In this document: one piece after another, positions 43,492 through 45,908 of the stretch
Layout of the letters: the number at the start of each line of letters is the position of its first letter
How positions within the stretch are numbered: the first letter of the stretch is position 1
Source of the DNA: a virus
Length of the DNA stretch: 64,000 bases
Virus record (IMG/VR): IMGVR_UViG_3300007513_000015
Location: 35,127-99,126 of that record
Strand: one strand, 5' to 3'
Notes under the pieces: generated by a model
Databases searched by the model: none
Seen by the model: only the letters and a program-made list of their open reading frames with translations
Told to the model about the DNA's origin: nothing
Translations under genes and position numbers: made by a program

Positions 43492-44979
43492 ATGAGTGAT
43501 ATTGTTGTACATCAAAAGGATGATGTATTTCTACAGATAGAAAGTGAGGCTGGAATAGCACACGATTTATCAGACTTCTTCACGTTCAAAGTACCAGGAT
43601 ATAAGTTTATGCCTGCGTATCGTTCAAGAGCGTGGGATGGAAAAATTCGTCTATTCAGTGTATTTGGTGGTGAACTGTATGTTGGTCTACTGCCTTATGT
43701 TATTGAATTTGCAGAACGTAGAAATCTAACGATTGAATATCCGAAGAAAACAGCAAAAGTCACGCCAGAAGAAACTGCTAAATTCTTGATGGGCCTGAAT
43801 CCTCACGTAAATAAGAAAGCAATCACTCCTTATGATTATCAGATGGCTGCGGTCCATCACGCAATCAATCAAGATAGAGCATTGATGATATCACCAACGT
43901 CCTCGGGTAAGTCCTTTATGATTTACGCACTGGTGAATTGGTATCTAACTAAGATTAAGAGAAAGATTCTTATTATTGTTCCCACCACATCATTAGTAGA
44001 ACAACTATATAAAGACTTTGAGGACTACTCAACATCGAATGATGATCATACATTCATCTATAGTAATGACATTACTCATCGGATATACTCCGGAAAAGAG
44101 AAAAACACTACAAAGTCCGTGGTTATCACAACCTGGCAAAGTATCTATAAGTTGAAGAAAGATTGGTTCCAGCAATTTGATGTTGTGATTGGTGATGAAG
44201 CCCATAATTTCAAGGCTAAGAGCCTAACATCAATTCTCACTAAAATGACGAATTGTAAATATAAGTTCGGTTTCACTGGAACTCTTGACGGAACAACAAC
44301 ACACAAACTTGTCCTAGAGGGCCTGTTTGGACCAATCAAGAAAGTTATCACAACCAAAGAATTGATGGACTCTGATACAATCAGTCAATTACATATTGAA
44401 GCTATCACACTGAATTATAAAGACGAAGAAAAAAAGCACGTTAAGAATCTAATATACAAGGATGAGATCGACTGGCTTATAAGTAATACAAAAAGAAATA
44501 AATTCATTTGTGATTTGACCATTTCGAGAGAAAACAACACGCTTGTATTATTTCAATTCGTAGAGAAACACGGAAAGAAACTCTATTCATATCTACAGCA
44601 AATGGCACCAGATAGACCTATATTTTTCGTGAGTGGTTCAATTAAAACAGAAGTAAGAGAGGAAATACGTGAGATTACAGAACGGTCTACAAACGCTATT
44701 ATCGTGGCTAGTTACGGTACTTTTTCTACTGGGATTAATATTAGGAATCTCCATAATATTATTTTTGCTCATCCCTCTAAGTCTAGGATTCGTAATCTAC
44801 AGTCTGTTGGTCGAGTTCTTCGGAAATCCGATGGGAAAAACAAGGCCACCCTATTCGATATAAGCGATGATTTATCTTGGAAAAAGCATAAAAACTTTTC
44901 ACTCAAGCATTTCCTAGAAAGAGTGAAGATATATAATACTGAAAAATTTGATTATAAACTAAGGAGCATTAAATTATGA
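43492..44979 (+). CDS. uvsW: SF2 helicase UvsW
   Basis: WDGKIRL, SPTSSGKS, DEAH, GFTGT, FSTGINI, QSVGRVLR. Confidence 0.95.
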   Translation: MSDIVVHQKDDVFLQIESEAGIAHDLSDFFTFKVPGYKFMPAYRSRAWDGKIRLFSVFGGELYVGLLPYVIEFAERRNLTIEYPKKTAKVTPEETAKFLMGLNPHVNKKAITPYDYQMAAVHHAINQDRALMISPTSSGKSFMIYALVNWYLTKIKRKILIIVPTTSLVEQLYKDFEDYSTSNDDHTFIYSNDITHRIYSGKEKNTTKSVVITTWQSIYKLKKDWFQQFDVVIGDEAHNFKAKSLTSILTKMTNCKYKFGFTGTLDGTTTHKLVLEGLFGPIKKVITTKELMDSDTISQLHIEAITLNYKDEEKKHVKNLIYKDEIDWLISNTKRNKFICDLTISRENNTLVLFQFVEKHGKKLYSYLQQMAPDRPIFFVSGSIKTEVREEIREITERSTNAIIVASYGTFSTGINIRNLHNIIFAHPSKSRIRNLQSVGRVLRKSDGKNKATLFDISDDLSWKKHKNFSLKHFLERVKIYNTEKFDYKLRSIKL

Positions 44980-45290
44980 GTACAGAAGTACAAAAAGCAA
45001 CAGTACATTTGAAACACACTGGCGTAGAATTGATTTGTGACATTGTAGAATTCAATGAAGAAAACAAGGCTATCACAATCAAGGATCCCGCAACACTCCA
45101 GATGATTAGTGCTGATGGAAACTCATCACAAATGGGATTGATGCCATTCCTTTTAACCTGTAAGGATAATGTGATTCATCTAGCACTTCAAGATATCCTC
45201 TTTATTGCAGACACAAAAGATGAAATTGCGGATCAACATACACAAATGTTTAGTCCTATCGATTTACCAAATCAAAAAATAATTACATAA
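44976..45290 (+). CDS. Hypothetical protein (Sm-like beta fold possible)
   Basis: LKHTGVELIC...PFL pattern; usual position between uvsW and gp55. Confidence 0.6.
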   Translation: MSTEVQKATVHLKHTGVELICDIVEFNEENKAITIKDPATLQMISADGNSSQMGLMPFLLTCKDNVIHLALQDILFIADTKDEIADQHTQMFSPIDLPNQKIIT

Positions 45291-45295
45291 AATAC

Positions 45296-45349
45296 TTGAC
45301 ATTCATATAAGTATAGTGTATAATACTTGAAAAATTGTACATATAAATA
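45296..45349 (+). promoter_or_regulatory. Sigma70 promoter (TTGACA-17-TATAAT) plus late promoter, both facing a non-coding region
   Basis: 45296-45324 and TATAAATA 45342-45349; no ORF downstream for ~590 bp. Confidence 0.8.
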
Positions 45350-45355
45350 AATCTG

Positions 45356-45594
45356 CCTGGGATACGAAAACCAGGATAGTAGCGAAAGCGAAGTGAGCAG
45401 ACTATAATATCTTAAACGCAATTAGATTGAGGTCTGTGGATTGATGCACCGTACAAGTGCTAGATATCTGAAATAATCGTGTCAGGACTTTCACCACATA
45501 ATGGTATCATATAGTCCAGTAGAGATGGTTGAATTGACAACCAGTGGCAAACAGGATCCCGTAACCTGTCTCTATAAGTCTACCTGTATCTAAT
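45356..45594 (+). ncRNA. Putative structured non-coding RNA
   Basis: Nested complementary segments (CCTGG/CCAGG, ATAGT/ACTAT, GCAC/GTGC, CTGA/TCAG, GGACT/AGTCC, TGGTTG/CAACCA, ACAGG/CCTGT, TAGAG/CTCTA, ATTAGAT/ATCTAAT) behind two promoters. Confidence 0.5.
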
Positions 45595-45687
45595 GAATTC
45601 GAAAATATATAATATGAAAAACAAATAAACTGGAGCGAACGAAGTGAGCGACACTGGTCGAACGAAGTGAGACCAGAGTTAGAGAAC

Positions 45688-45772
45688 TGTCCTAAAACTA
45701 TAGGATTGATGTAATAATTTATCCTTACATTGTCCTAAAACTATAGGATTGATGTAATAATTTATCCTTACA
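45688..45772. repeat. Two identical 42-bp iteron-like repeats with internal palindromes
   Basis: TGTCCTAAAACTATAGGATTGATGTAATAATTTATCCTTACA at 45688-45729 and 45731-45772. Confidence 0.92.
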
Positions 45773-45879
45773 CTTTCTATAGGATCATTACACATTAGGA
45801 CACAACCCTAAGAACCAATCTCGCTTCGCTCGATTGGTCCTCCTTCGCTTCGCTCAGTCGGTTTTCTTTGATTTTAGTA

Positions 45880-45908
45880 TTGACTTTTTCTATATTTTAT
45901 GATATAAT
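45880..45908 (+). promoter_or_regulatory. Sigma70-type promoter for gp55
   Basis: TTGACT-17-TATAAT with extended TG. Confidence 0.75.

Follow-up and report, generated by a model that had tools for sequence, protein, structure and literature searches.

The closest described counterparts, by kind, of the element reported here are GOLLD and ROOL, which are large 'ornate' RNAs of phages and prophages, stand-alone and intricately folded, that were found by covariation and have no assigned function (10.1101/2024.12.08.627333). The element lies between the genes for the UvsW helicase and gp55 in a stretch of 64,000 nucleotides (nt; referred to below as the window), which is part of the 99-kb IMG/VR virus record IMGVR_UViG_3300007513_000015, and it is almost certainly an independently transcribed, highly structured non-coding RNA (ncRNA) of a family not previously described, running on the + strand from about position 45331 to at least 45576. 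The resemblance to GOLLD and ROOL is one of kind and not of homology: the element is smaller (~250 nt), it gave no sequence or model match to either, and its occurrence is restricted to T4-like phages of marine origin and related elements, where it is tied to an array of hairpins downstream.

Conservation and covariation of the RNA

A total of 80 loci around relatives of the window's gp55 gene were taken from IMG/VR. Positions 45295-45590 were 72-85% identical in most of the loci whose gp55 was at least 67% identical (blastn; 39 distinct related loci), and the remainder of the gap downstream of 45590 was barely conserved in the same comparison. Using nhmmer, the RNA was found in ~100 related loci (58-60 distinct sequences), with exactly one copy per locus. 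A pattern scan of metagenomes, which was loose and returned mostly chance matches from which 47 real ones were picked by nhmmer, added 17 further distinct sequences, some of them divergent. A 17-nt core word of the RNA occurred in 50 of 2.9 million IMG/VR contigs, all of which belong to the RNA's own phage group, and no match to the RNA was obtained among 50,697 GenBank phage records with blastn in 'distant' mode. Six matches came out of a strict pattern search in the GTDB species genomes; they were GC-rich, did not contain the helices of the RNA and were taken as chance.

The related uvsW-gp55 gaps, whose collection had been proposed in an initial annotation of this DNA, showed a conserved RNA region, and covariation was present within it. 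With RNAalifold, 39 pairs were predicted from a plain MAFFT alignment, and compensatory changes were seen at 29 of these. A more complete model, with 53 pairs distributed over 13 helices, was mapped from the window onto an alignment made from sequence only (alignment A3; 41 distinct sequences); 97.4% of cells were paired under this model, compared to 32-39% when the partners were slid by 1-3 columns. Double (compensatory) changes were observed in 34 of the 53 pairs, and the covariation score was 0.404 against 0.13 in shuffled alignments, none of which (0/500) scored as high. The + strand was identified as the folded strand because three near-invariant G-U pairs would become A-C on the other strand. 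Insertions and deletions within the RNA were not multiples of three, H2, H6a and the loop of H8 varied in length among relatives (with insertions in some lineages), and the 3' tail of the RNA was variable.

Folding energy, which had been suggested as a further check, did not separate the RNA from controls: the minimum free energy was -54.5 kcal/mol, with a z-score of +0.09 on the + strand and -1.33 on the - strand relative to dinucleotide shuffles. Under the refutation rule of the initial annotation this value would speak against the RNA; the comparative data show that a single-sequence test is uninformative for an RNA that is AU-rich and pseudoknotted, and covariation was taken as the deciding criterion. 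The stretch had also been described as lacking an open reading frame (ORF); no ORF in the gap (45291-45907) is longer than 49 amino acids (aa), in keeping with that description, and short ORFs of 30-49 aa overlap the RNA region.

The whole window was screened against Rfam 15, including its models for riboswitches, ribozymes, RNase P, 6S, HEARO, IMES, GOLLD and ROOL, and no match reached the gathering score; within 45331-45600 there was no match at E-values up to 10. No tRNA or tmRNA was predicted by ARAGORN in the window or in five homologous loci; the initial annotation had not recognised the RNA as a tRNA, tmRNA, RNase P RNA or intron. Readings of the RNA as group I intron, RNase P, tmRNA, hairpin ribozyme or K-turn were also dropped by eye, as their defining features were missing. 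No published report of the RNA was found in the literature searched. Its description as a new phage ncRNA is thus strongly supported by its conservation, covariation and conserved promoter and by the lack of an Rfam match.

Architecture of the RNA

The RNA almost certainly comprises two domains, a 5' domain (H1-H4) locked by a pseudoknot (PK1) between the leader and the loop of H4a, and a 3' domain folded as a compact nested double pseudoknot, in which the second pseudoknot (PK2) crosses H5. The features of the RNA and its promoter region are as follows:

45296..45324, + strand: sigma70-type promoter of the RNA (-35 at 45296-45301, -10 at 45319-45324; 12 of 12 consensus matches)
45331..45576, + strand: structured ncRNA, minimum extent (nhmmer homologues, covariation, invariant G-U pairs)
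45335-45340, + strand: PK1 5' strand (PK1a), UUGUAC, pairing with the H4a loop GUACAA at 45451-45456
45342..45349, + strand: TATAAATA, T4-type late promoter motif, in the 5' linker of the RNA between PK1a and H1
45356-45360 with 45371-45375, + strand: H1 hairpin; covariation (GC, AU, UA) at two pairs, the other three invariant
45382-45389, + strand: H2 mini-hairpin GC-GAAA-GC; loop and stem length vary in relatives
45389-45397, + strand: near-invariant single-stranded motif CGAAGUGAG, directly after H2
45397-45402 with 45432-45437, + strand: H3, enclosing H3a
45409-45412 with 45424-45427, + strand: H3a; 7 of the 10 pairs of H3 and H3a show compensatory changes
45438-45441 with 45466-45469, + strand: H4, with a conserved internal loop; all 8 pairs of H4 and H4a covary
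45446-45449 with 45457-45460, + strand: H4a, whose loop is the second strand of PK1 (PK1b)
45470..45479, + strand: A-rich single-stranded linker between the domains, GAAA(N)AAUCG-like in alignments A3 and A4
45480..45574, + strand: 3' double-pseudoknot domain (covariation of H5-H8 and PK2)
45480-45483 with 45546-45549, + strand: H5, UGUC/GGCA, covarying as UA, GC and GU
45485-45488 with 45514-45517, + strand: H6 (covariation model)
45493-45496 with 45502-45505, + strand: H6a (covariation model)
45520-45524 with 45570-45574, + strand: PK2, TAGAG/CTCTA, crossing H5
45526-45531 with 45538-45543, + strand: H7 (covariation model)
45551-45555 with 45565-45569, + strand: H8 (covariation model)

PK1 was examined across the homologues. 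Each of the 55 sequences with an H4a helix also has a leader complement of at least 6 nt, spaced consistently with respect to H1, and ~13 distinct leader/loop word pairs were seen among 21 sequence classes of the H4a loop (for example GAGUAA/UUACUC, GUGUAA/UUACAC, GUCAGU/ACUGAC, GAUGCAA/UUGCAUC, GUCCAA/UUGGAC and AUCAGUUG/UAACUGAU). When one representative was taken per loop class, the loop matched its own leader in 21/21 cases, compared to 35% for crossed pairs. The 5' strand of PK1 begins a few bases after the putative transcription start, and the existence of PK1, which the fold in the initial annotation did not include, places the 5' end of the RNA upstream of TATAAATA.

In the 3' domain the strands follow the order H5a, H6, PK2a, H7, H5b, H8, PK2b with almost no junction nucleotides. 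PK2 was invariant in the main clade and was replaced by compensating variants (UGAAG/CUUUA, UGAAG/CUUUG and UAAGG/CCUUA) in divergent members; H5 likewise occurred as GAUC/GGUC in divergent homologues. The initial annotation had drawn part of this region as a three-way junction, TAGAG[TGGTTG/CAACCA][ACAGG/CCTGT]CTCTA. Its helices do covary, but they belong to the nested double pseudoknot and not to a simple junction, since helix H5, absent from that first fold, makes TAGAG/CTCTA a pseudoknot. A hairpin CCTGG/CCAGG proposed at the same time was backed by covariation. The two helices said to close a large domain, ATTAGAT/ATCTAAT and GTGGATT/AGTCTAC, did not hold, as 50% of their cells were paired, the same as in shuffled and slid controls; ATTAGAT pairs locally, within H3a. 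No convincing further loop-loop contacts of the H1, H3a and H7 loops were seen by eye.

The internal loop of H4 (45438-45469; 5' UGAU opposite 5' UARAU) was nearly invariant. It could form tandem sheared G-A pairs, which makes it a candidate protein-binding or tertiary-contact motif.

Two structural variants were noted among the homologues. In one subclade (L046:2270-2310, L017, L037 and relatives) an H-type pseudoknot of compact form takes the place of the window's AUAUAAAUA linker; in one example GGUC/GACC and CCGUG/CACGG are interleaved, and covariation is seen in the two stems alike (alignment A1, columns 131-158). A short form of the RNA, found in L009, L011, L028, L143, L147 and L252, lacks H3a, H4 and H4a, and hence PK1, and retains H1, H2, the GAAGUG motif and the entire 3' double-pseudoknot domain.

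Promoters, downstream hairpins and genomic contexts

The perfect TTGACA-17-TATAAT promoter claimed earlier is present at 45296-45324, and the RNA is predicted to start near 45331. The -10 box and a -35-like box are kept at the equivalent place upstream of the RNA in the main uvsW-gp55 clade. The second promoter claimed, TATAAATA at 45342-45349, is likewise present as a motif and is a putative promoter; at this position within the linker it is kept in the closest subclade only, and as it lies downstream of PK1a, a transcript begun there, if the motif is used, would be 5'-truncated and devoid of PK1. In divergent lineages (L184, L117, L185, L205, L214, L261 and L089) TATAAATA stands 35-45 nt upstream of H1, from where a late transcript would include PK1a. 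The separate promoter proposed for gp55 was also located (TTGACT-17-TATAAT at 45880-45908).

Beyond the RNA, the gap holds two further features:

45634..45868, both strands: downstream module, with GAA-triloop hairpins on the + strand at 45634-45680 and hairpins of the same type on the - strand at 45811-45868
45688-45773, no strand assigned: two 43-bp direct repeats forming an AT-rich spacer between the oppositely oriented hairpins

In 52 of 56 distinct loci, some of them outside the uvsW-gp55 context, the 450 nt that follow the RNA contain GAA-triloop hairpin motifs (for example CGAAGTGA, GCGAAGC and GNCGAAGNC), and this co-occurrence led us to read the RNA and the hairpin array as one inherited module. 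Their density was 5.7 per kb downstream of the RNA compared to 0.08 per kb elsewhere in the same loci (a 72-fold enrichment), and the first copy usually lay 35-110 nt after the RNA. The stems of the hairpins covary, their loops are conserved and the hairpins recur in inverted orientation beyond the AT-rich spacer. The 9-nt word CGAAGUGAG is common to the RNA and to the hairpin loops; three exact copies occur in the 64 kb of the window, all of them in the gap.

The genes at the locus are, in order, those for the tail tube, UvsY and the UvsW helicase, a 104-aa ORF, the 617-nt gap, and the genes for gp55, the late sigma factor, and gp47. No GenBank phage has a gp55 more than 59-60% identical to that of the window; the nearest are Pelagibacter phage HTVC008M and cyanomyoviruses, and on these affinities the source phage was taken to be an uncultured T4-like myovirus from the sea. 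Gene order within the main clade is constant (uvsW, the 104-aa ORF, the RNA, a variable 290-410 nt, gp55), and the content of the interval between the RNA and gp55 ranges from nothing to ORFs of 60-115 aa.

In addition to uvsW, the 104-aa ORF, gp55 and gp47, the neighbours of the RNA elsewhere include unrelated small ORFs, integrases and a resolvase. L184 (1281-1560) and L117 represent a distant lineage of T4-like phages, with a uvsW that is 48-50% and a gp55 that is ~55% identical, in which the RNA lies between a 55-aa ORF and gp55, ~60 nt before the gp55 ORF; in these two loci a gp55 promoter, TTTACA-17-TATAAT, overlaps the 3' tail of the RNA and TATAAATA lies upstream of the RNA. The L089 copy is antisense to the unrelated genes on either side of it, and nrdAB and spanin genes are close by. 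Two metagenome contigs carry it in other surroundings: in L261 (1-7400), which has tyrosine integrases, the RNA is 1.1 kb from a tyrosine integrase abutting a guaA-like gene, and in L205 (1-8462) it lies among tiny ORFs, a serine resolvase and an integrase fragment. The L205 contig contains four TATAAATA motifs, a number reached in 0 of 200 shuffles. Given this variety of T4-like and recombinase-bearing loci, the RNA is regarded as a self-contained unit which has moved between T4-like genomes and recombinase-bearing elements. The latter appear, from their motifs, to be wired to T4-type late transcription, and those in L261 and L205 are possible satellites of such phages.

The ORF directly upstream of the RNA has a feature line of its own:

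44976..45290, + strand: 104-aa Sm/LSm-like protein ORF (AlphaFold2 and Foldseek)

This ORF had no Pfam match and no sequence match in the PDB. An AlphaFold2 model built from 22 homologues (pLDDT 85) gave PDB 3BY7 as the top Foldseek match (E = 2.6e-5, TM-scores 0.70/0.83), followed by spliceosomal Sm/LSm chains, and on this predicted structure the product is assigned as an Sm/LSm-fold protein of the 3BY7 family. 3BY7 is a cyanophage Sm-like putative pentamer (cited in PMC3710371). A profile hidden Markov model tied the ORF to HTVC008M gp098 and Syn19_130, both of which are encoded between uvsW and gp55. In records of related cyanophages the Sm-like gene is labelled 'methylamine utilization' (phrog_471; T4-GC 139).

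Possible functions of the RNA

It is tentatively proposed that the RNA is the RNA half of a transcription-activated replication-origin module. This reading was favoured because it fits best with four features: the fixed pairing of RNA and hairpins, the inverted orientation of the hairpins on either side of AT-rich repeats, a strong promoter, and the uptake of the module by integrative elements. In this scheme the RNA would be transcribed from its promoter into the AT-rich repeats, in the manner of T4 ori(uvsY) and ori(34), and the hairpins on both strands would act as single-strand initiation signals of the RSF1010 ssiA/ssiB and G4 type. A factor recognising CGAAGUGAG would bind the folded RNA and the hairpin loops alike, and an infecting helper phage would replicate those integrative elements in which the module follows T4-type late promoters.

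The T4 origins ori(uvsY) and ori(34) and the ColE1 RNA II system share with this locus a promoter that fires a non-coding transcript into an AT-rich region; in the window, the promoter at 45296-45324 directs a non-coding transcript toward the AT-rich repeats at 45688-45773. T4 ori(uvsY) lies in the syntenic uvsY-uvsW neighbourhood, and ColE1 RNA II illustrates that a primer RNA can require a defined fold. We know of no conserved tertiary structure in T4 origin transcripts, unlike the phage RNA, and several lineages of the phage RNA differ from T4 origins in using late promoters; an R-loop here is a candidate by analogy. The suggestion in the initial annotation that the RNA is such an R-loop primer is favoured by its co-inheritance with the hairpin repeats and by the shared 9-nt motif. 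The opposed orientation of the hairpins also has a parallel, as the ssi hairpins of RSF1010 lie on opposite strands. GAA/GAAA mini-hairpins recognised by primase have been described for the G4 origin of replication and for ssiA of RSF1010, and in the RSF1010 oriV (ssiA/ssiB) and the G4 complementary-strand origin such mini-hairpins serve, as is envisaged here, as single-strand initiation signals (PMC13037366). Those origins differ from the phage module in being read by RepB' or DnaG primases on single-stranded DNA and in having no adjoining structured RNA gene.

Several observations weigh against an origin function, which is itself a proposal drawn from sequence. The hairpins are absent from L184, L117, L089 and L026, and the lack of these repeats in two lineages counts against the R-loop primer idea as well. 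The late promoters TATAAATA upstream of the RNA in L184, L117, L185, L205, L214, L261 and L089 are a poor fit to early origin firing. The GC skew has no inflection at the module, although skew is uninformative as an origin signal because it tracks gene orientation. T4 primase is not known to use hairpin signals. A search of the window for an intrinsic terminator, or for any terminator-like site followed by a U-run, gave none, and the RNA, which reaches at least 45576, may extend to ~45591 or further. Lastly, two pseudoknots and ~50 invariant positions are not needed by a primer and are more typical of ribozymes, riboswitches and protein scaffolds; with so many invariant unpaired bases, the RNA looks made to act in its folded form.

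In a second possibility, only slightly less favoured, the RNA would be a trans-acting folded scaffold or decoy bound by a phage or host protein, a ribonucleoprotein (RNP) with an Sm protein included. Candidate partners are the upstream pentameric Sm-like protein, RNA polymerase or gp55, and a CGAAGUGAG-binding factor, with the hairpins as extra binding sites or 3' stabilisers. A complex tertiary fold with many invariant unpaired stretches would suit such a role, as would a promoter of its own in every context and the solitary L089 copy, which is antisense to both neighbours. The Sm-like gene lies directly upstream in each locus examined of the main uvsW-gp55 clade, and the A-rich linker between the domains may be counted on the same side. 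The likeness to Sm/Hfq-dependent RNAs is that a structured RNA gene adjoins a gene of the 3BY7 family (PMC3710371). Unlike those RNAs, the phage RNA has no evident U-tract resembling an Sm site and does not co-occur with the gene outside the main clade.

In HTVC008M and Syn19 the Sm-like gene occupies the same site between uvsW and gp55, with a gap of only 75-185 nt to gp55, and no RNA was found in their gp55 loci by nhmmer. A covariance model of the 3' domain, searched against the complete HTVC008M and Syn19 genomes and two other IMG/VR contigs, gave no credible copy; it otherwise found the window's own copy only, and an 18-bit match in HTVC008M was rejected for poor pairing. Conversely, no Sm-like ORF was present within 3.5 kb of the RNA in its other contexts. 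Judged by what is expected of an Sm-associated RNA, the two genes are adjacent in the main clade and the A-rich linker is present, and each partner is also found alone. Since the Sm-like gene occurs without the RNA in cyanophages, the link between them is weak: their adjacency is suggestive and their co-occurrence gives no support.

A broader variant of trans action, which we consider unlikely, would make the RNA a new catalytic or ligand-sensing class that acts in trans during infection, maybe as an RNP with the Sm-like pentamer, and that has been captured by integrative satellite-like elements behind T4-type late promoters to exploit or sabotage the helper phage.

It is a little more doubtful still that the RNA is a cis-acting leader, similar to a riboswitch or attenuator. 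Such a leader would gate read-through from the upstream promoter toward gp55 and the small ORFs before it, and the regulated terminator would be the first strong GAA hairpin. The RNA does lie upstream of gp55 on the same strand in two T4-like lineages whose gp55 proteins are only ~55% identical, it stops ~60 nt short of the gp55 ORF in L184 and L117, and its pseudoknots give it an architecture of aptamer grade; at L185-type loci an alternative pairing of the PK2b strand, with a complement further downstream, is possible by eye. However, gp55 has its own promoters downstream of the RNA, and no known riboswitch model was matched. The lack of a co-directional gene after the RNA in L089, the varying content of the interval before gp55 and the lack of a terminator-like U-run site count against a leader in the same way, and for these three reasons the RNA was not placed in the riboswitch or cis-leader class.

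A catalytic role, as a new self-cleaving or otherwise catalytic RNA whose 3' domain has a topology like that of hepatitis delta virus (HDV) ribozymes, is improbable. The 3' domain shares with HDV-like ribozymes the nested double-pseudoknot order P1, P2, P3, P1', P4, P2' (H5 corresponding to P1, PK2 to P2, H7 to P3 and H8 to P4, with an extra hairpin, H6, at the place of J1/2), and this helix order is fixed by covariation around a nearly invariant core. The P4 and J1/2 regions of HDV-like ribozymes vary in length, as do H8 and H6 at the equivalent places. The analogy fails at the active site, as the RNA has neither P1.1 nor the J4/2 strand with the catalytic C; the H8-PK2b junction, where that residue would sit, has zero nucleotides in most sequences. 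In addition, H5 is 4 bp compared to ~7 bp for P1, H7 is 6 bp compared to 3 bp for P3, and the Rfam ribozyme models were silent even at E-values up to 10. The strand topology of the 3' domain also recalls the P3-P7-P8 core of group I introns. An intron was rejected on the location of the RNA, between a stop codon and promoter on one side and non-coding DNA on the other, on its junctions of 0-2 nt and on the lack of an Intron_gpI match. As the defining junctions are absent and no model matched, the RNA was filed neither as HDV-like nor as group I.

We give equally little credence to the RNA being part of a mobile genetic unit, for instance as a recombination cassette or as an RNA of the guide or bridge type. 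Such a role would explain why the RNA occurs at various places in genomes and next to recombinases. At least four types of locus were seen (uvsW-Sm-gp55, uvsW-gp55 lacking the Sm gene, L089, and integrase/resolvase elements), and the 3' tail is variable; the adjoining hairpins, with their conserved loops and covarying stems, resemble transposon-end hairpins. On the other hand, the RNA has no constant nuclease or recombinase neighbour, each contig holds a single copy, and HEARO and other guide-RNA models were unmatched. The transposon or nuclease guide RNA class (omega-RNA, bridge RNA) was rejected as no IscB, TnpB or IS110 partner adjoins the RNA.

Finally, that the stretch is not an RNA but a small protein gene, protein-binding DNA or chance folding is very improbable: the shuffle-like folding energy and the overlapping short ORFs would allow it, but it is effectively refuted by the compensatory double changes, and the indel lengths, the strand-specific G-U pairs and the variation in hairpin length also speak against it. 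The remaining weight as to function is left to readings outside those set out here.

T4-like myoviruses of the sea rank with the most abundant marine viruses, and to our knowledge almost nothing is known of their RNA genes. With its many covarying helices, its two pseudoknots and dozens of unpaired bases that do not vary, the RNA described here bears the hallmarks that earlier marked ribozymes, riboswitches and large ornate RNAs, and it fits none of those classes. Together with the GAA-hairpin array it constitutes a concrete candidate replication origin in a phage group that has no mapped origin, and its presence in recombinase-bearing elements with T4-type late promoters points to an interplay of phages and satellites in marine hosts. 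The Sm-like protein of the 3BY7 family has reportedly been an orphan since its structure was published in 2009, with no RNA partner assigned, and the RNA is the first candidate for that partner.

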